A DNA stretch of 64,000 bases from the NCBI RefSeq assembly GCF_006345805.1, contig NC_042997.1, forward strand, positions 152,706,001 through 152,770,000, written 5' to 3'. The notes under the pieces are model-generated. The model did not search any database, had not been told where the DNA came from, and saw only the letters and a program-made list of their open reading frames with translations. Position 1 is the first letter of the stretch. The number at the start of each line of letters is the position of its first letter. Origin of the DNA: Octopus sinensis. Lineage: Eukaryota. Both the position numbers and the translations under genes were made by a program. Shown here one piece after another: positions 5,831-54,614 of this stretch.

Positions 5831-6120
5831 AAAGAAAAGCAAAGTCAAAGCAACTGAAACATCCACACATTGTGTTTCTTTCATATTTATCGTTTTACAA
5901 ATTTTATCGACAATGAAATTTTATTCATTGAAGAAATTTATGACAAATTTAAAAAGTCAGATTAATCTACACCAGAATCGGAACTTTATCTATAATTCAG
6001 TGAAATCTTAAGAATAACTCAGTTGCATTTGGACTTTATCATATGGTAATTTATAATTATGAGATCCCGAACACAGTGATTATTAAAAGCATTCATAAAA
6101 TGTATATTTCTAAAACAAAG

Positions 6121-6152
<32 letters not shown>

Positions 6153-6158
6153 CATACA

Positions 6159-6189
<31 letters not shown>

Positions 6190-6369
6190 CTTTTCAAAAA
6201 TGCTCATTATAATGCTACCTTTCACTAATGTCTAAAACTTAAAAGCAAGCATTCATGAAGTAAGCATATTTAATTTATGTAGTTACGTGGATTTGATTAT
6301 GAATGGTTCAGTATTTGAGAAAATTGAGAAAATATACAATTACACAATTACTTGATATTTGTGTGTGTA

Positions 6370-6417
<48 letters not shown>

Positions 6418-6922
6418 TGTGTGCACGCGTGTGTGTGTAGGTAAGAAGTAAAATCTCCATTTTAAAGATGTGACCGCTAGTCATATAATAAATATATTCA
6501 AACATAACAAAGTATACATCTCCCTAGAAGCAGCAGAGAGTAAGTAGAAATTCTTTATAGCGAGAAACATATGAAAGATATTCTGTTCTAAATTGGTTTC
6601 AAAATGGCTGAAGTTTATAGAAATGGGTAATTGATGCTAGACAGCCAAATTTTGCCTTATTTAAAATATTCGTAAATAATTTACTAGTGTACGGCAATTT
6701 GATGTAAGAGAACTCCAAATATGAGTTGAAGACATAATGTCGTATATTATTGTCATTAAAGAGAAACGCTGCTAAGAGAAATATTGTAACATATACTTGT
6801 AGAACGACGTTGTGAATAAATAAATTCTTAACAGACTACCAATTTAGATTCAATGATTATATAGTTTCTATATATTTAGAATGATTGTATATGTATAAGA
6901 GATTCAAGCTACCAGAATTTGT

Positions 6923-6965
<43 letters not shown>

Positions 6966-6980
6966 ATATATATATATATA

Positions 6981-8075
6981 GTGTCTGATGGAAATACCCG
7001 GGACCTCCGTTTTCAAGACGTCAGAACAGCACTAACTGAGAGCCAATATACACTCCCTTATAGACGATGGAATTAAGCGTCCCAAGAAATTAGGCATTAA
7101 AACACTAAGTGAAACAAAATGTAACACCACATCTCAAAACACTACCGTATATATCAACTCAAAACCCCAGAAACAACGAGGCATGCAACACTATTGTGAA
7201 AAATCTACCTATGCTCACTGGGATCCAAACTTGAACAGCATTCTGAAAACACATAGATTCATCAAATGCAAAAAAACAACACAAATCGCTGAAACGACTG
7301 GTGATAAATGCGAAGCTTTACACAACAATCACGAAACCGGTGGTTAAATGTGTATGCCCAAACTGTGGAACATGCTCCAACCTGTTGGAAGGTTCGGAAT
7401 TCCTACTCAAAGAGAGAGGTTTACAATTAAAGCCAACTTTACTTGTGCTAATTTATCTAATTTATGTTATAACTTGTTCAGGTTGTGGACATAACTGTAT
7501 GGGACTGACAAGTATGGCACTTAGACGGAGAACCACACTACATAAGGAACAGGTCCATTTTCCACAATACAGACAGATTTCTTTGAGTGAAGACATAGAG
7601 AGATGTGAAGGTAATACCCAATCAAACTTCAAAGTTTCCTTCATCTCACAGTGCAAAGAAACAATTTCTGTACAAAAACGTTTAAATAAGGAAAATGTAT
7701 TTATCCAAAATACAGAACACACCTAAATATGAACGCATAAACATCTTTGGTTTCAGTATATATTTCAAATCATGCTCACAAGCCCATCACTGTAAATACT
7801 TCATCCCACTACTTTAGCTTTTGAGGTTTTGCATATTTATCTATCCCCCCACCACACGCGCAAAATATAAACATTTACCTAACCTGTCCCGAATAATAAC
7901 GATCACCAATTACCCGAACTTAGATTATTTTTACATGCTGATTCATTTCATTCCCAAACTCCCATACACAACGTGGACTAAAATCTTAAGAAAATACGAA
8001 ATTACAATAATCTCAGTGTCATGATTCGCGAAAGCGAAACCGGTTAACAAACAAAATACTCTTTCAATTATAAAA
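6981..8075 (+). mobile_element. Penelope-like element 3' portion with GIY-YIG endonuclease relic
   Basis: ORF 7301-7726 has CxxxxCxTC then LIYVITCSGCGHNCMGLTSMALRRRTTLH (GIY-YIG pattern); degenerate hammerhead-like motif at about 8017-8049; flanked by (TA)n. Confidence 0.75.
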
Positions 8076-13310: not shown

Positions 13311-13427
13311 GATACAACAAAAGAAACACATGCACACGCGCACACACACACACGTGCGCACATCCACCAACGCACACGCACACACATACCTGAGCGCGTG
13401 GAACAAATGTAGAAAGTTCTGTGCTAG

Positions 13428-13830
13428 ATATTCTTTTCTACTCTAGGCACAAGGCCCGAACCTTTGGGGAAGGGGGCCAGTCGATTAGATCGATCCCAGT
13501 ACGCAACTGGTACTTAATCTATCGACCCCGAAAGGATGAAAGACAAAGTTAACCTCGGTGGAATTTGTACCCAGAACGTCAAGACAGACGAAATACCTAT
13601 TTGTTTACTACCCACAAGGGGCTAAACACAGAGAGCACAAACAAGGACAGACAAACGGATTAAGTCTATTATATCGACCCCAGTGCGTAACTGGTACTTA
13701 TTTAATCGACCCCGAAAGGATGAAAGGCAAAGTCGACCTCGGCGGAATTTGAACTCAGAACGTACTGGCAGACGAAATGCCGCTAAGCATTTCGCCCGTC
13801 GTGCTAACGTTTCTGCCAGCTCGCCGCCTT
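13428..13830 (-). mobile_element. Nin/Deu-core tRNA SINE, dimeric composite
   Basis: Head GGCGAGCTGGCAGAAACGTTAGC at the 13830 end; two cores (G)CCTTTCATCCTTTCGGGGTCGAT..AAGTACCAG; two different tails. Confidence 0.85.
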
Positions 13831-14539
13831 GTTCCGTGCTAGATATTGATAAACAAAGATTTCACTGATTTAAGTGAAATCTAGCCAGACTATACGTAAA
13901 GTAATACCTGTACTTGAAACAGCCTTATATTAAGATTCCTGTGTATATAATATTTATTATGCCTATACAGACGTAGAATGATACGACCTGTAATATTTTA
14001 TATGAGAGAAATATCTCAAAGAGACTTGTTGTTCCGATATAGAAATCCGTAAACAAAATATTTACTGGTTTGTGCGAAGTTAGCTTTTTTTATTGTAAGA
14101 GGGAGAATCATGTTGTCAGGAGTCAATTTTCATTTAATTTTCAATACTGAATTAAATTCAAGCTTAATGGAATGAAGTATTTCATATAAATATTATACAT
14201 ATATTTCATTCAATTTTCTTTTCTCGTTTCAACTATGAAGTCTATTTCAGTTTAACTGAAAAGTAATGAAGGGCCTATTAATTGCATTATAATATTTACT
14301 TTACAGAAGAAAAAATAAACATTCTGGAAATGAGAGATAGAGAAAAGATATATTATGGAAGTATACAATGTTTGTAAATGTATAATTATATATGTGTGTG
14401 TTTATGTATAAATTCTAAGCTTCTTAATTTTGATTGATCTTCTGAAGAAAATTAAGAAAGCAGATATTTACATGTATGTAGTTGAATATACAAATTTGTG
14501 GAAATTACTCAATACATAGAGAGTATTGTCGAGTGAAGA

Positions 14540-18698: not shown

Positions 18699-18700
18699 AA

Positions 18701-19430
18701 TTTCTTTATTAGCCACATAGGGCCGAACACAGAGGGGACAAAATAGAATGTAGAGCTTTTCTTTTCGAAAATAGAAAAAAAGGAGAAAAATACAATTTCG
18801 ATCAAAAATGATCGTGTATCACAGAAAAATTTTTAAAGTGTAAAAAGCAAGATTAGATTTATCCGAGGAAAGAAAAGCCTACGGAAAAAAACAAGGTAGC
18901 CTCAGGCAGGGAGGGAATAAAAACATAAGATCAAAGTGCTCTCTCTCACTCTCTTTTTTCGATTTATAGTATCATGCTCAAAGTCATTTCATCACTCACT
19001 CTTTGCTACATTCACCTACCTTTTATTGAAACTTTCACGAGACAAAACTTTACATGATAGACTCGGCCGACAGTCAGACTTGTCCCATACGTGACAGCAG
19101 CCGTTCGACATAAGCCCACAGGTCCGAAACGGCTGGACACTGCACGGGTGTGTGCAGAACCGTATCGTCGCTCTGACCGCATCTCGGGCAAGTCAGTCCA
19201 GTGTGTCTCGAACCGTGCCTGTAGAGCTTATCCCGAACGGGTAATGCTTCTCGATAGCATTGCCAGGCCAGGGATCTCTGGTGATTGTCCATAGGTCACG
19301 GCCCGAAAGTTGTCCTGAACAGGCGGGTCAGGTGTCCCTCGTCGACACCCAGATTCTGCCCGAGAACGACGTCGCACCACACCTCCAAAAATCCTGTATA
19401 GAACACCTTTGTGGAAAAATTAATCACCTC
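18701..19430 (-). mobile_element. 5'-truncated L1/Tx1-like LINE (zf-RVT region and 3'UTR)
   Basis: QRSLAWQCYREALPVRDKL..TCPRCGQSDDTVLH..CPAVSDLW is a zf-RVT CCHC pattern; ends AATAAAGAAA followed by (TCTA)n. Confidence 0.8.
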
Positions 19431-19624
19431 TACAGTACCATTTAGAAAATAATTGAGGGTGCAGGTTCCTGGTTGCTCGATCAAGTGGGAATTGCACATA
19501 AGAATCCTTCAAAATACCTCTCAACTTAAAAAGAAGTATTCATCAGATCATCTATTCTAGCATACACATATACTCGTGAAGATGTAAGAAGCGGTAACAT
19601 CATTCAAGGCGGGAGAAATCTTAT

Positions 19625-20472: not shown

Positions 20473-20882
20473 CACGACAAAAGTAGCAGCAACAGTAGCA
20501 GTGCTGATGTTTGCACTGCTTTTAATGCTAAGCCATATACCCCTTCAGAACTAAATGGATTCGACCGTTGCGACTGAAGTGTCTTGGTTTCATCAGGTTG
20601 TGAGTGACATGGACATGAATGAGCCAAATGTCTCTCAGCAAGATATCTGTTCATTATTGAATCAGCCGTTAAATTTCCCAGATAAAAATATATTGATCTT
20701 AATTAGAGCTGTGTACACAAAGATATTATCGATTTTTTCCTTTCGAGATGAAATATCTGAAAAGCAAAACTCAAACATATGAATTCAAATTGTAACTTAA
20801 AGAGAAGTTTCAGAAAAACAGCGGTTCATAGCAGGATGAAGGTAGTTGTGATTTGGCTATTATCATTATTATTATTGAAAAC

Positions 20883-22055
20883 GGCACGCTGGCAGAATCG
20901 TTAGCACGCCGGGCGAAATGCTTAGCGGTATTTCGCCTGCGTTACGTTGTGAGTTCAAATTCCGCCGAGGTCGACTTTGCCTTTCATCCTTTCGGGGTCG
21001 ATAAATTAAGTACCAGTTACGCACTGGGGTCGATGTAATCGACCTAATACCTATGTCTGTCCTTGTTTGTCCCCTCTATGTTTAGCCCCTTGTGGGTAGT
21101 AAAGAAATAGGTATTTCGCCTGCTCTTACGTTCTGAGTTCAAATTCCGCCGAGGTCGACTTTGCCTTTCATCCTTTCAGGGTAGATTAGATAAGTACCAG
21201 TTACGCACTGGAGTCAATATAATCGACTTAATCCGTTTGTCTGTCTTTGATTGTCCTCTTTGTGTTTAGCCCCTTTGTGGGTAGTAAATAAATAAGTATT
21301 TCTTCTGCCGCTACGTTCTGAGCTCAAATTCCGCCGAGGTCGACTTTGCTTTTCATCCTTTCGGGGTCGATTAAATAAGTACCAGTTACGCACTGGAGTC
21401 GATATAATCGACTTAATCCGTTTGTCCATCCTTGTTTGTCCTCTCTGTGTTTAGCTCTTTGTGGGTAGTAAAGAAATAGGTATTCTCTCCTTGATACCAT
21501 CTGAGTTTAAATTTCGCCGAGGTCGACTTTGCTTTTCGTCCTTTTTGGCTCTATCAATTAAATACCAGTTACGTACTCGGGTCTATCTAATCGGCTGGCC
21601 CTCTCCCCACAAATTTCAGGTTTTTCGCCTATAGTAGAAAGGATTGTTATTATTGAAGGCTGTGAGCTGGCAGAAACGTTAGCACACCGGGCGAAATGCC
21701 TTGCGGTATTTCGTTTGCCGCTATGTTCTGAGTTCAAATTACGCCGAGGTCGACTTTGCCTTTCATCCTTTCAGGATGGATTAAATAAGTACCAGATTCG
21801 CACTGAGGTCGATATAATCGACTTAATCCGTTTGTCTATCTTTGTTCGTCCCCTCTGTACTTAGACCCTTGTGGGTAGTAAAGAAATAGGTATTTCGCCC
21901 GCGTTACGTTTTGAGTTCAAATTCCGCCGAGGTCGACTTTGCCTTTCATCCTTTAGGGGTCGACTGATTAAGTTCTAGTTGCGTACTGGGGTCGATCTAA
22001 TCGGCTAGCCCTTTTACCCCAAAATTTTCAAGGCCTTGCGCCTAGAGTAGAAATA
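20883..22055 (+). mobile_element. Array of Nin/Deu-core SINE units (one tetramer plus one dimer)
   Basis: Heads at about 20883 and 21658; six units of about 180 bp with GAGGTCGACTTTGCCTTTCATCCTTTC core; junctions at about 21110, 21296, 21479 and 21889. Confidence 0.9.
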
Positions 22056-22650
22056 ATAATAATAATGATAATATGGTTCTCCTCAAAATATTTTTGTTGC
22101 TCTGCGGTGGATATTTTGTGATAATCTTCAGATTCAATAAAGCCACTATCGCCTTGTGTTCATGGTAAACAATTATTCTATACCAAATTGTTAGAGACTC
22201 AAAATGCAGTCATTATTTCTTTGTTTTTCTACCTTGACTTACTAGACCGCTTAGTGTTCACTTGAGAATATTAAAACTGTAACTTAATTACGGGACAAGA
22301 GGTAACTTTTTGTTTTTGCATTTAGTTTTAGGTAGTAATCTGATTGACTAACGAAATTCCTTCCTAATCTTTTCTTTCATTCGTGTATAATGAATACTAT
22401 CTAGATAATTGATTAAATATTAATATATGTGTCATTGGTCTAATATTCTTATCTCTGTTTCTTTATCTGCTCTGTTATCACTCTTCTTAATTAATTTTCC
22501 TCTCTTCACGGTCGCTTTGGAACATCCATTAGTTAACACTCAAACGGATTTATGCGGTAAATCTATGTATTGTCAATGGCATTCCTTATAGTCGCATATC
22601 ATTTGCAGCATACAACTTGAGATCATCCGTTTACAAAAGATAGTTAATTG

Positions 22651-22763: not shown

Positions 22764-22800
<37 letters not shown>

Positions 22801-22812
22801 ATTATAATTATA
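22653..22812. repeat. (AAT)n followed by (TTA)n (self-complementary microsatellite pair)
   Basis: Direct reading. Confidence 0.9.
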
Positions 22813-23012
22813 ACGTCTTCAAATTTTTCCACAAGGGCAGCCATTTCGGGGAAGGGATTAGTCGGTTACTTTGGCTCCAGTGTTCCACTAGTACTTAATT
22901 TATCGACCCCGAAAGGATGACAGGCAAAGTCGATCTCGGCAGAATTTAAACTCAGAACGTTTAGATAAAATACCACTAAGCACTTCACCCGGGGTGCTAA
23001 CGCTTCTGCCTC
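22813..23012 (-). mobile_element. Nin/Deu-core SINE
   Basis: TCGACCCCGAAAGGATGACAGGCAAAGTCGA core; head at about 23010. Confidence 0.8.
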
Positions 23013-23060
23013 AATAATCATACTAATAATAATAATAATAATAATAATAATTATAATAAT

Positions 23061-23778
23061 AAGCAAAGAACCATGATAAAACGATGGCAAGAAAAACCCC
23101 TTCATGGAAAATACTGGACTAAACTAAATGCAAAAGAAATAGACAAAGAAAAATCCCGGCAATGGTTGAGAAGCTCAGGACTCAAAGCAGAGACAGAGGG
23201 ATTTTTAATTGCAGCACAAGACCAAAGCCTCCCCACCAGAAATTACCAAAAACATGTAATGAAAAGAAATATAACAAGTAACTGCAGAATATGTGGAGAT
23301 GGACAAGAAACAATAAATCATATTATCTCTGGCTGCCCAGTCCTGGCTAAGAAGGAATATATTCACAGACAAGACAGAGTTGGAACCTACATACACTGGA
23401 AGCTATGCCAACATTATGGAATAACAACAGAAAAAAGATGGTATAGCCACACACCAGAAAAGGTCACAGAAAACGAGAAAGCAACCATACTCTGGGATAT
23501 ACCGATACACACAGATAGAGAAATTAAGGCCAACAGACCAGATATAGTTGTCAGAGATCATGAAGAAAAAAAATGCTTTCTAATTGATGTATCAATACCG
23601 GCAGATGACAACGTGTCTCTAAAAGAAATGGAGAAACTTTCAAAATACAAAGACCTGGAAATAGAGGTAACCAGAATGTGGAATCTAAAAACAGAAACAA
23701 TTCCTATCATAGTAGGTGCATTAGGCATGATAAAAAAATATTCAGACAAATACATAACAAAAACACCAGGACTTACAA
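23061..23778 (+). mobile_element. Young R4/Dong-like LINE fragment (CCHC + RLE), open frame, truncated at both ends
   Basis: ORF 23073-23834: KPLHGKY, ETEGFLIAAQDQ, CRICGDGQETINHIISGC, RPDIVV..LIDVSIP..KYKDL; starts after (AAT)n and breaks into (AGA)n. Confidence 0.92.
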
Positions 23779-23800
23779 GAAGAAGAAGAAGAAGAAGAAG

Positions 23801-23995
23801 AAGGAAATTGAAGTATTTAAGCTGTTGGGCATGAAGGTGAAATCAGTATCAGTAATACCTGGAGCATTGGTTAGGAAAAATACATGAACAAAAGCTTCAA
23901 AGCTATAACTGGACCGAAATCCCTACACACTATCAAAGGGTTAACCTGCTGGGCACAGCTCATATCCTATGCAAGGCACTATCTATTTCGATAAT
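23801..23995 (+). mobile_element. Older R4/Dong-like RLE C-terminal fragment
   Basis: EIEVFKLLGMKVKSVSVIPGAL..LLGTAHILCKALSI. Confidence 0.7.
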
Positions 23996-37864: not shown

Positions 37865-38315
37865 ACATATTAGTTTCAAATTTTGATACAGGGCCAGCAA
37901 CTCAAGAGAAAGAGCTAAATCAATTAAATCGGCCGCAATACTCAACGGGTACTTATTTTATCGACCCTGAAAGGATGAGAAGCAAAGTCGACCTGGGGTC
38001 GAATTTGAATTCAGAAAGTAGAAACGGTCGAAATGCCGCTAAGTATTTTGTCCGTGTTAACGATTCTGTTACTTCGGCGTTTTAATAATAAATATGATAA
38101 TTCTGTCTAGTATAGGCAGAAGACCTGAAATTTTAGGAGAGAGGTTAAGTCGAATGCATCGACCCCAGTACTCAACTGATACTTAATTTATCGATCCCAA
38201 AGGATTAAAGGCGAAGTCGACCTCGGCCGAATTTGAATACAGACAGTAAAGACGGACGAAATGCCGCTAATTATTTTTGCCTGGCGTGCTAACGATTCTG
38301 CCAGCAGGCCGCCAT
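37865..38315 (-). mobile_element. Two adjacent Nin/Deu SINE copies
   Basis: Cores at about 37960 and 38190; heads at about 38078 and 38313. Confidence 0.8.
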
Positions 38316-39802: not shown

Positions 39803-39816
39803 AGCAATACATTATA

Positions 39817-40042
39817 CGGCGAGCTGGCAGAATCGTTAGCACGCCAGGCAAAATGCTTAACCGTATTTCGTCTGCCGTTACTTTTTGAGTTCAAATTCCG
39901 CCGAGGTCGACTTGGCCTTTCATCCTTTCGGGGTCAATTAAATAAGTACCAGCTACGCACTGGGTCGATGTAATCGACTTAGTCCCTTTGTCTGTCCTTG
40001 TTTGTCCCCATTATGTTTAGTCCCTTGTGGGCAATAAAGAAT
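39817..40042 (+). mobile_element. Full-length Nin/Deu SINE monomer with Tx1-like tail
   Basis: Head, core and tail TTGTCCCC..TTGTGGGCAATAAAGAA. Confidence 0.88.
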
Positions 40043-40924
40043 TATATATGTTATTTTTTAAAGTAAATAATATGCAATTCGCAGTACTTTGGTACACTAA
40101 AGCTGGCAAGCTGTCACGGTCTGTATCACTAACTCCTTACCTTTAGAGTCGAACCATTTCAACCATTCGACTTGTAGCCTCCACCAAAACTTCAAACCTT
40201 GTACATATAGTAGAAAGGATTATTTTTAGCCCATTAGATCAGCAACCTGACGAAATACTGTAACTGTTACGCTTGATAACGTTCTGAATTCACATCCTTA
40301 TGGAGGTCTAATTTGAATTTCTCCTCTGTGAATATAAAATAAATACCAGCCAAGTCATTTTCATTGATTGTAAACCTTTCTTAAATTGTTGACTTTCTGC
40401 CAAATTCAGAAACCAGTTTTATTGTCCATATAAGCCACTATGAATCAGAATTAACATTACAATAATCCGTGTGAGTAGTGAAAGGATATTAGTGATAAGG
40501 TCCGTATTTCGGTATAGCACATGTGATATGTAATGAATGATATTCAATGAAGTGAGCTTATAATCAACCACAAAGTATAATGATCACAGATGATTACAAT
40601 CTCTTCCAAACTTTCATACTTCCCCTGACTCATTCACTCTTCCTTATCTTCTATAGTGTTGCTGTAGCTAGCAGAGAGAAACAGGTGAGAAAGCTGTAGG
40701 AAATGTACGATGGAAGTAATATATGTAGACTAAACGTATAAACGAATGCAATTCAAACAACAATAGGTCTTTGTTCGGGGTTCTTGCTTCTAGCAGAGAT
40801 TAGCCAATTAACGGTTCCATACGAACATCATCGACACACGAAGCTAACGATAATCATCACCACTACCATGACAGGGACTCTCACCCTCATACGATAAGCA
40901 TTACCCTCAACAACGCTAATTTAT

Positions 40925-42907: not shown

Positions 42908-45900
42908 TCACATCGACAATGCTCTTCTCAATACGTGTGATGTACCAGTTAAGACAATCTTTTGCACTTCTTGCAGGGATGGTAAGCCAGGGATCATTCT
43001 CATATAATTTTCGGTTCCCTTCTTGATCATTCCTAGTGCTCCTACGATCACTGGTATTGTAACCGCCTTGAGATGCCACATTTTCTCAATTTCAATGAGT
43101 AGGTCTTTATATTTTCTGAGCTTGTCAAACTCTTTCGCTGAGATATTATGATCACAGGGGATGCTCATGTCGATCAATAAGCAAACTTTATTGTTTTGGT
43201 CTTTCACAACAATATCTGGTTTATTGGCCTTGATGGTTCGGTCTGTATGTACTGGAAAGTCCCACAGAATGGTTACATTTTCTCCTTCAGTTACAGCCTC
43301 AGGGTGGTGATTATACCACTTGTCGGCAGTTTTGATATTGTAATGCCGACTTATTAGCCAGTGGAGATATTGGCCAACTCTGTCATGTCTTAATTTATAC
43401 TCCACTGGTGCTAAGACTTTACATCCAGAGATTAGGTGGTCCACTGTTTCAATTATGTCGTTGCAGAATCGGCATTTTGGGTCAGCTCCATTTTTCATCA
43501 CATTGGCCTGGTAGTTCCGGGTTGATAGGCTTTGGTCTTGAGCAGCCAGGATGAAACCTTCGCTCTCTGCTTTTAGCCCTGAGCTCCGCAGCCACTGATG
43601 GGTTTGCTTCTGGTCAACATCAGCTTGTTTGCTGCGGGTCACATATTTGCCGTGCAGAGGTTTCTCCTCCCACCTATCAGCCAATTGCTCGTGCGCTTTT
43701 TTCATTGCCATCATTTTCACCTTCTTTGCAACAATAGTTGCCGTACTTCCCTCGGGTTGTTCAGTTTGGGTATCCTGCACGAGATCAATAGCAAATTTTT
43801 TGCTTTCCTTGATGATAGAATGAAGCTTCTTTCGTCTCTCGTGATTTTCCACGAGCTTTAGCATCCAGTCATTCGATATTTCGAGATATTTGGCCAGTCC
43901 AATTGTGGTTGTTTTGTAAGCTAGTTCAAATTGGATCAGGCCTCGACCTCCTTGGGCTCTGGGAAGGTAAAGGCGATCTACGTCTGCCTTTGGGTGGTGC
44001 ATCCTATTACAACTCAGCAGCTTGCGTATTTTTCTATCCATATTCTTTACTTCAATCATATTCCAGTTCAACACATTGTAGCTATAAGTAACACCTGGAA
44101 CTGCTAGGGAATTTATAGCTAACACCTTGTTACGTGCATTTAGTTCAGATTTCAGGACTGCACGAACTCTCCTATAACATTCCTTCCTGATTTTCTCTTT
44201 CATGCTTGCATGCTGAATACCAGAGCCTTCATTTATCCCTAAATATTTGTATGTTTGTTCTTGCTCAAGCTCTCTTATGACTGTGTCAACATCTAACACG
44301 ACTGAATTTGTGGTCTTCATTTTCCCTTTCTGGAAAGTGGCCTTGGCACACTTCTCAAGTCCAAACTCCATCCCGATGTCATCGCTGAATGATTTCACGG
44401 TGCGCAATAGGCCTTCAAGTTCATTATTGTCTTTACTATAAAGTTTTAAGTCATCCATATAAAATAGATGGCTTATTTTTTTATTGGCAATTTTATACCC
44501 ATACCTTATTCTGTTTAATTCACTTGTAAGGGGTATTAGGGCTATGCAGAATATTAAAGGTGAAAGTGAGTCACCTTGAAAAATTCCACAGTTGATGTTT
44601 ATATTTTCTGAGGCAAGTACTCCATTAGAGTGGTATAATTGGAGATTCGTATTCCACAACGACATATTGTGCTTCAGGAAGTTTGAAATCACAGGGGAAA
44701 TTTTGAAGATGTCCAGCGATCTCAAGATCCATGGATGCGGTATACTGTCGAAGGCTTTTTTATAGTCAATCCATGCGGTGCTGAGATTTCTGCGCTTGTT
44801 GTGACAGTTCTCAAGGATCATACGATTGATTAGCAGTTGATCTTTGCATCCGTAAGAGCCTCGGCGGCACCCTTTTTGTTCAATGGGGAAAATATCGTTC
44901 TTCTCCATGAATGCATATGTTTTCTCCGCCAGGATAGATGTTAGAATTTTATACGTGGTGGATAGACAGGTTATAGGCCGATAGTTTTTTGGAAGGTTGG
45001 TTTCGTTATTCTTTGGGAGTAGGTAAGTAATGCCACTTGCTAACCATTCAGGTGTTTTCTTTGGGTCTCTCATAATTCCATTGAGCAGCAGAACTAGCTT
45101 ACCGTGTGCGCACGGGAGCGATGCGAGCCAGAAATTCGGCACCCTATCTTTACCGGGGGATTTCCAATTATGGGCCTTCGTGAGTGCCTTTCTTAGGTCT
45201 GCTATTGTGATGTCTTCCCATGCTTGTTGTAAATTTTGGTAGGATCCTTCAGTTTGTATAATCCAGTCTGCATTTATGTTGTACGTCTTCTTGTCACTCC
45301 AAATCCTTTTCCAAAAGTTTTGAACTTCTTCCATGGGAGGGGGGTCTTTAACGGTTACTTTCTCCTTCCCTATTTCTTTGTAGAATTTTTTGGCATTGGA
45401 TGTGAACAGCTTATTTTGCTTGTAAAACTTGTTTCTCTTCTCAAATCTTCGTATTCTTTGGGCTTTTGCTTGGACTTTTTGTTTCAGCGTTTCTTTTATT
45501 GATATCAGTTCTTCTCTTGGTGAGGATCCAAATTTTCTCTTCATCTTTCTTCCTGTTCTGGATCTTACATCATTTCCACATATTAGTTCATTTAATATTG
45601 ATATTTCCCCTCTCATAAATTCAATCTCTTTTTCAATTTTACTTCTCCAGGTTTGATTTCTTCCCAGGTTTTGTTTTCTTTGTTTTTTCGGGGGCATACA
45701 GCTGGTTTCAATTGCCCTAGCAGAAGCGTAAATAATTTCATTTAACTCAGTAAAATCAGGTTTTAATTCTCGTATTATTTCATTTGTTACATAGTTGCCA
45801 ATTTGGATTTGTTTTTTATTTTGGTTTGTATTTGAGAGTTTATGAAGCGGTTCTCTATCATTCATACTTGTATGTCTTACAACTTCAAGCGTATTCAGGA

Positions 45901-46228
45901 TTTTCTGCCTCATTTCTGCTATAGACTCTCTGTGTTCTTCAGCAAATGCGAGATCTTCAGTTACTGTTGTTTTTTCGTTTTCCTGGCTATCTTTAACAGG
46001 TACAATAGAATTTCTTGTATCTTCAGGCCTTTGCGTACTTTGGTCAGATGGCAGTCTTTCAATTAAGCCTCGTGGCGGGCTATACTGTTCATCTGATTCT
46101 TCATTTCCTTTGTGTCTTATATTTATGTCATTTTCCGTTGCGTGCTTGATCGCGCTTATTTCACTGTCTGTGAGTCTGTTATTTCTAAAGATATCCCTCC
46201 TCACATTTGCTAATTTGTTCTCGTCCAA
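42908..46228 (-). CDS. Reverse transcriptase with CCHC zinc knuckle and restriction-like endonuclease (main open part of the R4/Dong ORF)
   Basis: WKSPGKD, NYRPITCL, WIDYKKAFDS, GIFQGDSLSP, FYMDDLKL, YKYLG, CRFC..ETVDHLISGC, RHD, KPDIVV..IDMSIP..KYKDL; the TTG start is artificial. Confidence 0.93.
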   Translation of the reverse strand: MDENKLANVRRDIFRNNRLTDSEISAIKHATENDINIRHKGNEESDEQYSPPRGLIERLPSDQSTQRPEDTRNSIVPVKDSQENEKTTVTEDLAFAEEHRESIAEMRQKILNTLEVVRHTSMNDREPLHKLSNTNQNKKQIQIGNYVTNEIIRELKPDFTELNEIIYASARAIETSCMPPKKQRKQNLGRNQTWRSKIEKEIEFMRGEISILNELICGNDVRSRTGRKMKRKFGSSPREELISIKETLKQKVQAKAQRIRRFEKRNKFYKQNKLFTSNAKKFYKEIGKEKVTVKDPPPMEEVQNFWKRIWSDKKTYNINADWIIQTEGSYQNLQQAWEDITIADLRKALTKAHNWKSPGKDRVPNFWLASLPCAHGKLVLLLNGIMRDPKKTPEWLASGITYLLPKNNETNLPKNYRPITCLSTTYKILTSILAEKTYAFMEKNDIFPIEQKGCRRGSYGCKDQLLINRMILENCHNKRRNLSTAWIDYKKAFDSIPHPWILRSLDIFKISPVISNFLKHNMSLWNTNLQLYHSNGVLASENININCGIFQGDSLSPLIFCIALIPLTSELNRIRYGYKIANKKISHLFYMDDLKLYSKDNNELEGLLRTVKSFSDDIGMEFGLEKCAKATFQKGKMKTTNSVVLDVDTVIRELEQEQTYKYLGINEGSGIQHASMKEKIRKECYRRVRAVLKSELNARNKVLAINSLAVPGVTYSYNVLNWNMIEVKNMDRKIRKLLSCNRMHHPKADVDRLYLPRAQGGRGLIQFELAYKTTTIGLAKYLEISNDWMLKLVENHERRKKLHSIIKESKKFAIDLVQDTQTEQPEGSTATIVAKKVKMMAMKKAHEQLADRWEEKPLHGKYVTRSKQADVDQKQTHQWLRSSGLKAESEGFILAAQDQSLSTRNYQANVMKNGADPKCRFCNDIIETVDHLISGCKVLAPVEYKLRHDRVGQYLHWLISRHYNIKTADKWYNHHPEAVTEGENVTILWDFPVHTDRTIKANKPDIVVKDQNNKVCLLIDMSIPCDHNISAKEFDKLRKYKDLLIEIEKMWHLKAVTIPVIVGALGMIKKGTENYMRMIPGLPSLQEVQKIVLTGTSHVLRRALSM

Positions 46229-46593
46229 ATAGGGCCTACTGTCTTGATTCCGTGTTCTCTATATACTGTAAGAGTTTGCGGTGTGTCTCTCTTGAGATGG
46301 CCTACCTAATGCATGTAATAAGCGTATATTACTTCTTTATACTCTTCTCGGGTCCATTTGTTCCGCTTACATTTTTCTTTCTGTGGTGGTTGTGGTGGTG
46401 AACTTGGAGGGCTCGAGTTGGGGGATTTCCCGTTCAAGTGACCATCCATGTCCGTATTCGGAGAAGAGTTTGTGCCAGTTGATGACTTTTCGATCCCAGG
46501 CTGGCTCTGCCCTGGGGGACGCGCTTCCAGATTAACCATAGGACAAGCGATTTGGTATACTGATTTAGTTTTCCTTTTAGTTTCCAAAAACAT
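46229..46593 (-). pseudogene. Disrupted N-terminus of the same ORF (Myb-like motif)
   Basis: ATG at 46593, KRNKWTREEYKEVIYAYY; frameshift at about 46313 and in-frame TAG at 46259-46261. Confidence 0.85.
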
Positions 46594-51902: not shown

Positions 51903-52143
51903 AATTTCTTTACTACCCACACGGGGCTAAACACAGAGGAGACAAACGAGGACAGACAAACGGCTTAAGTCGGTTATATCGACCCCAGTGCGTAACTGGT
52001 ACTTATTTATCGACCCCGAAAGGATGAAAGACAAAGTCGACCTCGGCGGAATTTGACTCAGAACGTAACGGCAGATGAAATACGGCTACGCATTTCGCCC
52101 GGCGTGCTAAAGTTTCTGCCAGCTCGCCGCCTTCCAATATATA
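51903..52143 (-). mobile_element. Full-length Nin/Deu SINE with Tx1-like tail, flanked by (TA)n
   Basis: Head at about 52143, core at about 52012-52040, tail ..GTGGGTAGTAAAGAAA. Confidence 0.9.
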
Positions 52144-54218: not shown

Positions 54219-54395
54219 ACTGTCTTTGGTAAGATGATTTTTGTCGGAGATAAAATAATTCTATGATTATATTTGAATTTTCTAGCGTTTCTCTTCTTCG
54301 TGAATGTTAGTGACGTCAACTATTGACTTATCGCTCCAGGTAACTTACTTTAAGTTTACGTCACGTCATCTTTATATATATATATCTATATCGAG

Positions 54396-54609
54396 ATGGC
54401 AGAAACGTTAGCACGCCGGGCGAAATGCGTAGCCGTATTTCGTCTGTCGTTACGTTCTCAGTTCAAATTCCGCCGAGGTCGGCTTTGCCTTTCCTTCTTT
54501 TCGGGGTCGATTAAGGACCATTTTCCAACTGGGGTCGATGTAATCGACTTAATCCCTTTGTCTGTCCTTGTTTGTCCCCTCTATGTTTAGGCCTTTGTGG
54601 GTAGTGAAG

Positions 54610-54614
<5 letters not shown>
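54396..54614 (+). mobile_element. Nin/Deu SINE with Tx1-like tail, flanked by (TA)n
   Basis: TGGCAGAAACGTTAGCACGCC..GTCCCCTCTATGTTTAG..GTGGGTAGTGAAGAAA. Confidence 0.88.

Follow-up and report, generated by a model that had tools for sequence, protein, structure and literature searches.

Three SINE composites lie in the 64-kb stretch of DNA analysed here (the window), each with a single head followed by several body-tail units, and they raise the question of how units can be added at one internal position of a SINE while no second head appears. The first-pass annotation had proposed that copies bearing one tail type (tail A) are reverse transcribed site-specifically into existing SINEs, with the 5' end resolved by homology. 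The composites were found where that annotation had placed them, with refined bounds of 20880-21642, 21658-22056 and 13433-13828 (minus strand). Composite 1 consists of a head, three body-plus-tail-A units and a body with a second tail type (tail B); composite 2 of a head, body plus tail A, and body plus tail B; composite 3 is a dimer with the layout of composite 2. These and the other relevant elements of the window are as follows.

20865..20879, plus: target-site duplication of composite 1, 5' copy (one mismatch against 21643-21657)
20880..20926, plus: single 47-nt head of composite 1, with an A-box-like motif, first bases decayed
20927..21109, plus: composite 1, unit 1, body (B-box-like motif) and tail A, 96% identical to the A-body consensus
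21110..21294, plus: composite 1, unit 2, body and tail A, resuming at SINE position 48
21295..21478, plus: composite 1, unit 3, body and tail A, with several variants common to units 2 and 3
21479..21642, plus: composite 1, last unit, older body and tail B, 80% identical to the A-body consensus
21643..21657, plus: target-site duplication of composite 1, 3' copy
21658..21888, plus: composite 2, head, body and tail A
21889..22056, plus: composite 2, body and tail B, resuming at position 48
13598..13828, minus: composite 3, head, body and tail A
13433..13597, minus: composite 3, body and tail B; a 17-nt target duplication flanks the composite (13831-13847, 13416-13432)
18700..19451, minus: 3' fragment of a Tx1-like LINE, its last ~45 nt resembling tail A, adjoining (TATC)n
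39814..40044, plus: tail-A monomer (C variant), followed by a TA-rich flank
51904..52131, minus: tail-A monomer within (TA)n
54385..54614, plus: tail-A monomer within (TA)n
38090..38313, minus: older monomer, listed as tail-B, a copy of the type used as host

A fixed joint at SINE position 48

All five joints of the composites (21109/21110, 21294/21295, 21478/21479, 21888/21889 and, on the minus strand, 13598/13597) directly followed the final base of tail A and resumed at SINE position 48, downstream of the 47-nt head, so that the restart point claimed in the first-pass annotation was indeed fixed; point changes were present at two of the five. The sequence that begins at this position, GGTATTTCG, was counted seven times in the window, where 0.40 occurrences were expected; five lie inside the composites and two (11055 and 55527) in places unrelated to them. 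Target-site duplications flank composites 1 and 3, and the (ATT)n taken earlier for a component of tail B turned out to be flank, composite 3 having none. In composite 1, three young units (92-96% identity to the A-body consensus) stand ahead of the old last unit (80%), which is likely to be the host copy; the variants common to units 2 and 3 might reflect a local duplication or the insertion of a multimer. Contigs from four runs, dominated by copies of the repeat, contained both flanks of the locus and, for three of the runs, the junction of composites 1 and 2; no single contig spanned the locus, and neither an empty nor a shorter allele was read in them.

The SINE monomer is ~230 nt long, and 160 bodies were counted in 1 Mb of evenly spaced sequence from the 2.7-Gb host genome. 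Fifty target-site duplications of SINE copies measured 9-30 nt, with a mode of 15-16. The A-box-like and B-box-like motifs, between which position 48 falls, are presumed to be such from inspection by eye against the box consensus; a search of Rfam gave no match to the SINE at E<=1, and a hairpin in the tail folded no better than shuffled sequences (z -0.04 to -1.6). Alignment relates tail A to the 3' ends of three LINE-type sequences.

Other elements of the window were recorded in the course of this survey. A third and older type of tail is also found on this SINE body (38090-38313 and 22781-23010, both minus), often beside tail-B copies in (ATT)n, and tail-B and older SINE copies cluster head to tail. 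An unbroken frame of 1,116 aa with an RT domain (42908-46258, minus) ends in (TAA)n and has related fragments near 23001-23834 and elsewhere; its C-terminal motif is of a kind that we take to be that of a restriction-like endonuclease, and hence of an R4/Dong-like LINE. This LINE was ruled out by comparison as the source of tail B, for which no LINE source was found.

As a measure of how general the joint is, the sequence following tail A was tabulated. Among 70 tail-A ends in the random 1 Mb, 15 resumed at position 48, four at position 15 and four at further SINE offsets, and 47 lay outside SINEs. Genome-wide exact counts gave 30,775 instances of tail A followed by GGTATTTCG, 314 followed by its C-first counterpart CGTATTTCG, 2,201 followed by AGAAACGTT (SINE position 15), 7,028 followed by GGTAT and a non-T base, 2,948 followed by AGAAA and a non-C base, and 10,964 followed by TATAT. 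The joints were thus not heterogeneous, the one at position 48 being repeated throughout the genome; the idea of one single target did not hold, given the second site at position 15 and the many unique GGTAT, AGAAA and TATAT sites. By a rough estimate, inflated by duplicated and re-mobilised arrays, tail A precedes 33% of SINE GGTATTTCG sites, whereas for GGTAT[ACG] sites elsewhere the share is 0.27%.

Sixty regions around joints, taken from the first 100 listed, yielded 68 arrays. The last unit was labelled tail A in 32 of these (two of which proved on inspection to be decayed tail B), tail B in 27 and bare body in nine. Tail B is therefore not an obligatory last unit, and the earlier statement that it always comes last is true of the window alone.

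Insertion into existing copies and the routes to a single head

The pattern of a host head, the site, a short spacer and a new head was matched exactly 90 times, and a control pattern 0 times. After five overlapping loci had been left out, 25 distinct two-headed loci were inspected, and in 18 of them an exact duplication of at least 9 nt surrounded the inserted copy; 14 of these 18 duplications repeated host-specific bases on both sides. The target duplications at two-headed loci measured 9-17 nt. Outer (host) heads were on average 82% identical to the consensus and inner (new) heads 89%, and the hosts are accordingly older than the inserts. These loci are ordinary target-primed insertions into an existing SINE, made many times at one fixed base. 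They are also scarce, with none in the random 1 Mb and one in the 60 array regions (about one array in 68).

The one-headed composites were then compared unit by unit, after removal of duplicate window loci and of any element whose head or tail was truncated. In those ending in tail B (n=49, of which 29, L002-L030, had been picked by their likeness to the window dimer), median divergence was 2.7% in the first unit vs 5.6% in the last (p=2e-8); the remaining 20 alone gave 3.4% vs 7.8%. Composites ending in tail A (n=29) showed the same order, with 3.4% vs 4.8% (p=0.001). No linkage was detected between first and last units of the one-headed composites (Mantel r=0.09, p=0.09; r=-0.11, p=0.95), and body and tail within a single unit were linked (r=0.38, p=0.0005; r=0.13, p=0.016). 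Host-specific duplications, younger first units and the independence of first and last units all bear out the proposal that tail-A copies enter existing SINEs site-specifically and independently, at the base before GGTATTTCG.

One alternative is that all composites descend from one ancestral dimer, the number of units being altered only through unequal crossover or slippage between its bodies. The variants common to units 2 and 3 of composite 1 fit such a descent, as do the near-identical neighbours of some long arrays: in L345, five neighbouring pairs were 0.97-1.00 identical, and L308 has a two-unit pattern. On average, however, neighbours were no more alike than random pairs (0.888 identity over 57 adjacent pairs vs 0.886), homogenisation within arrays being confined to five of the 57 pairs, all in one seven-unit array; the last units are diverse, and the independent target duplications with host-specific bases, together with a LINE found at the same base (see below), refute the ancestral dimer as sole cause. 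We therefore regard this origin as highly improbable, while crossover or slippage remains a contributor to the long arrays. Neither of the findings that the first-pass annotation had named as fatal to its proposal, a single dimeric master or heterogeneous joints, was obtained.

Three arrays (L308, L322 and L345) reach 7-10 units, with a higher-order pattern of two units in L308 and near homogeneity in L345; we refer to them as incipient satellites.

How one head is lost was approached through rare variants common to the first and last unit. These were enriched in the first 20 nt alone (nine vs 1.7 expected) and came from six of 65 dimers, most clearly L294, which retains an old head and old first bases and then switches to a young unit. 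Judged from sequence, this sharing is as expected if it marks a hidden target duplication whose 5' copy was joined seamlessly. The head carried the variant of the incoming lineage in 19 of 78 one-headed loci, by a test which is weak in that it uses two diagnostic columns and 35% of tail-B heads score as A-like; in such loci the crossover may sit near the 5' end, or the multimer may have been copied whole. C-first heads are common among SINE copies. The 5' end resolved by homology, as earlier envisaged, thus stands for those loci in which seamless joining is visible, and falls as the sole route.

Copying of whole multimers does occur. Among 13 headless composites, two (L242 and L339) had a clean outer duplication and are 5'-truncated multimers; in L339 (plus), the multimer piece starts and ends within SINE bodies and is flanked by a 23-nt repeat. 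It might then be argued that most one-headed composites are whole copies of a few multimeric masters which arose from rare insertions, self-insertion being real but minor. The scarcity of two-headed insertions is in keeping with this, as are the truncated multimers with outer duplications, a trimer contained within one duplication at L184, and heads that are mostly of the young A type. Against it stand the lower age of first units and their lack of linkage to the last ones, the variety of last units in both type and age, and the hidden duplications in the first 20 nt, so that we consider such an origin unlikely for the majority. Re-mobilised multimers and tandem duplication are nonetheless additional sources of single-headed copies, and two-headed insertions occur too; on this point the assumption of homology only was too narrow.

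A head fragment followed by a new head at position 15 was matched 40 times, and 24 of these loci were inspected. A true insertion bounded by a duplication was found in L193 alone, the other 23 being 5'-end repeats, and the pattern by itself therefore proves nothing. Many SINE copies in this set (L192-L215) open with a repeated 15-27 nt of their own head, within the outer duplication, which suggests template jumping at the 5' end. Two related structures were noted: a head-only tandem run of six heads with a 65-nt period ahead of one body (L167, G000:C1:195358955-195359248), and a stretch with numerous repeats of a 26-nt piece of the head (G000:C10381:37343-37971).

A probable LINE partner and the choice of target

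The first-pass annotation had pointed to the Tx1-like fragment of the window (18700-19451, minus), and its 3' end does resemble tail A. The family of this fragment encodes an APE endonuclease, an RT and a zinc motif, with a full example (ORF1 and ORF2) in L279. Its 3' ends, however, adjoined (TATC)n 4,593 times genome-wide and GGTAT 0 times, and 18 further ends that were read also included none at GGTAT; the fragment was rejected as the partner. The label Tx1-like follows from match scores: the RT region of L279 scored 130 and 116 bits against proteins named Tx1 and 54 against human L1, and one match of 127 bits was named LINE-1. The best named match of the LINE protein was in the octopod Argonauta hians (67%).

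A re-screen of 505 tail ends left 29 without a SINE body, and a different LINE was met among them (L216). L391 and L216 together make up a full-length element with a zinc-knuckle ORF1, an APE endonuclease, an RT and a C-terminal zinc motif (L216); it occupies position 48 of a SINE and is bounded by a 16-nt duplication, and alignment to tail A covers its final ~45 nt. Copies of this SINE-homing LINE occupied the same base at 121 of 140 exact 3' ends and in all 19 further copies read. The expectation that Tx1-like LINE 3' ends would abut the SINE joint was thus borne out by a separate family, and not by the window's own fragment, which targets (TATC)n; the endonucleases of the two families are 46% identical. 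A similar 3' tail and the same target base make the lineage of this young LINE the likely engine of SINE insertion. The family itself is small (159 copies), nearly invariant and very young relative to the SINE wave (~3% divergence), which therefore probably used an earlier member of the lineage; no older member was found in the loci examined here.

Three more Tx1-like sequences were seen. Two belong to further families with other 3' ends (L036, plus, 5970-7000, whose end adjoins TC-rich repeats, and L129, minus, 3978-2600). In L241 (minus, upstream of 1518), a gag-like zinc knuckle stands directly before a tail-A-like end (ORF1-only type) at SINE position 15.

The SINE and the SINE-homing LINE differ in first-base preference. 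The first target base of the LINE was C in 59, G in 40 and T in one of the 100 matches listed, whereas 99% of SINE joints are G-first (30,775 vs 314 C-first); the LINE tail is of the C variant, and the T variant was present in 97 of the 100 SINE joints listed. The enzyme alone leaves unexplained both this G-first rule and the heritable targets of the SINE subfamilies, GGTAT vs AGAAA, hinting at RNA-guided priming. Among the matches listed, the T variant made up 98 of 100 GGTAT[ACG] ends and 97 of 100 GGTATTTCG ends, and the C variant 88 of 100 AGAAA[AGT] ends and 86 of 100 AGAAACGTT ends. The association of subfamily and target (p=3e-40) held even in unique DNA, and a second marker gave p=2e-7. 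Since the SINE encodes no protein, the difference must stem either from its RNA or from different LINEs having been its partners in turn.

One possible explanation, which we hold tentatively and at somewhat less than even weight, is that the transcript runs past tail A into the flank and that this extension pairs with the nicked primer. On this view each SINE lineage would tend to land in sites resembling the one that its master occupies, masters located inside SINEs would go on hitting SINEs, and the endonuclease would be only loosely specific in trans. Four consecutive T are absent from the unit consensus and present in 62 of 246 copies, so that transcripts would carry flank. The motif lies within the duplicated target in 16 of 30 GGTAT and 18 of 25 AGAAA cases, and the base after AGAAA was T in 70 of the 100 matches listed, the same as the tail's own end. 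The G-only rule, unlike the behaviour of the SINE-homing LINE at C and G sites, points the same way. According to the parts of the sources consulted, L1 priming requires about four matched terminal bases (PMC3649969), a co-transcribed target can strengthen targeting (PMC4494074), and R2 is able to prime without pairing (PMC11194090), so that pairing is not a universal need. Two observations weigh against RNA guidance. Several Tx1-like families with differing targets are present, namely (TATC)n, position 48, position 15 for the ORF1-only type (L241) and TC-rich repeats (L036), so that the links between subfamily and target could reflect which LINE was active when; and nearest neighbours predicted the target class in 164 of 201 cases, hardly better than shuffles (mean 155.7, maximum 164). 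A succession of partner LINEs is as plausible as RNA guidance.

Proposed mechanism, meaning and known systems

The joint is fixed, two-headed copies are bounded by duplications, inserts are younger than their hosts, and a LINE occupies the same base with a 16-nt duplication. Tail-A SINEs at position 48 inside older copies of the family were probably placed there by the endonuclease and RT of the lineage of the Tx1-like LINE, with mobilisation putatively in trans. In the mechanism that we propose, the LINE protein would bind the 3' tail common to LINE and SINE, its endonuclease would nick the bottom strand at the position-48 site, and the SINE RNA would be copied starting from the last base of tail A. 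In a diverged host the 5' end would join in the ordinary way, leaving two heads; in a similar host the new cDNA would be likely to pair with the matching host head, leaving one. Promoter spacing would be restored by the remaining single head, which would also offer a fresh site for the next round. Transcripts of multimers are copied as units as well, and the longest arrays grow through tandem duplication. Where a SINE transcript continues beyond tail A into flanking DNA, its RNA may, putatively, pair with the nicked primer and so sharpen or shift the site. Two further observations limit the mechanism: the 47 of 70 tail-A copies outside SINEs in the random 1 Mb are the majority, and seamless joining is directly visible in only the six of 65 dimers described above, heads of the incoming lineage being expected from re-mobilised multimers also.

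Self-insertion is real and genome-wide, largely as first guessed, a guess that is partly supported in that the LINE partner is a different one and the routes to a single head are several. An element inserting into its own family thereby accounts for a large share of repeat structures here, with more than 30,000 exact joints. Such a family is a safe landing place which multiplies as the element spreads and in which promoter spacing survives insertion, and it shows how dispersed SINEs can become multimers and satellites with a starting point other than recombination. For annotation, the multimers should not be named as separate dimeric SINE families. The mismatch between the targets of the LINE and of the SINE subfamilies makes the respective shares of endonuclease and RNA-primer pairing in non-LTR target choice testable. 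It is conceivable, with rather less confidence than in the role of the LINE lineage, that the loop is closed: the SINE would be both passenger and landing pad of the SINE-homing LINE, and the last site of each lineage would act as a 3' read-through guide steering priming. If so, a non-coding RNA reprogrammes the insertion site of an L1/Tx1-type enzyme at tens of thousands of natural loci.

Zepp and DIRS-1 are retroelements that insert into their own existing copies; both are autonomous, whereas here a non-coding SINE does likewise, putatively in trans. Ohshima and Okada (1994) reportedly described abundant tRNA-derived SINEs of octopus (OK, OR1 and OR2), which in abundance, and putatively in tRNA type, resemble the SINE of this octopod. 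The open-access literature searched yielded no description of a self-targeting SINE system. The portions consulted of papers on cephalopod and mollusc repeats report abundant SINEs and L1-Tx1 elements and no such nesting (PMC13282606, PMC8967140, PMC4758252).

The nearest parallel is SINEU (especially SINEU-3) with the Tx1-Mar LINEs of crocodilians, in which a SINE and a Tx1-group LINE likewise favour the same site in a repeat, target duplications measure ~16 nt and sequential insertions give tandem copies (PMC4494074). In crocodilians, a Mariner DNA transposon provides the target, and the tandem copies sandwich a duplication (PMC4494074). The octopus SINE, in contrast, has its own family as target, mostly one head with no visible duplication, and subfamily-specific targets; no snRNA-derived head was recognised (no Rfam match), and SINE and LINE share position 48 as their target, with a differing first-base preference. 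It resembles SINEU in its workings without belonging to it. The octopus case is thus a variant of the known targeting of other transposons by Tx1 elements and SINEs, new in that the target is the element's own family. Among Tx1-group LINEs with fixed targets, Tx1L inserts into Tx1D, Keno into U2 and Kibi and Koshi into (TC)n and (TTC)n; the window's LINE family on (TATC)n behaves like the last two, and homing of a LINE into a SINE that shares its tail has no counterpart among these elements as summarised there (PMC4494074, in part).

Squamate satellites derived from SINEs also consist of head-to-tail repeats of partial SINEs, with uniform long arrays; in the sections consulted they arise mainly through unequal recombination at satellite-like loci, whereas the arrays of the octopus SINE are short and dispersed and begin with a site-specific insertion (PMC10702118). 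Dimeric and complex SINEs such as Alu and B1-dID are likewise built of several units and can be copied as one RNA (PMC3531059, in part). Halves of equal age that are linked to each other, by which a dimeric family is recognised, were not what the one-headed composites displayed. Alu and B1-dID, according to the same partial source, descend from a fixed master (PMC3531059), whereas in the octopus the joint has been remade at many loci and in different hosts.
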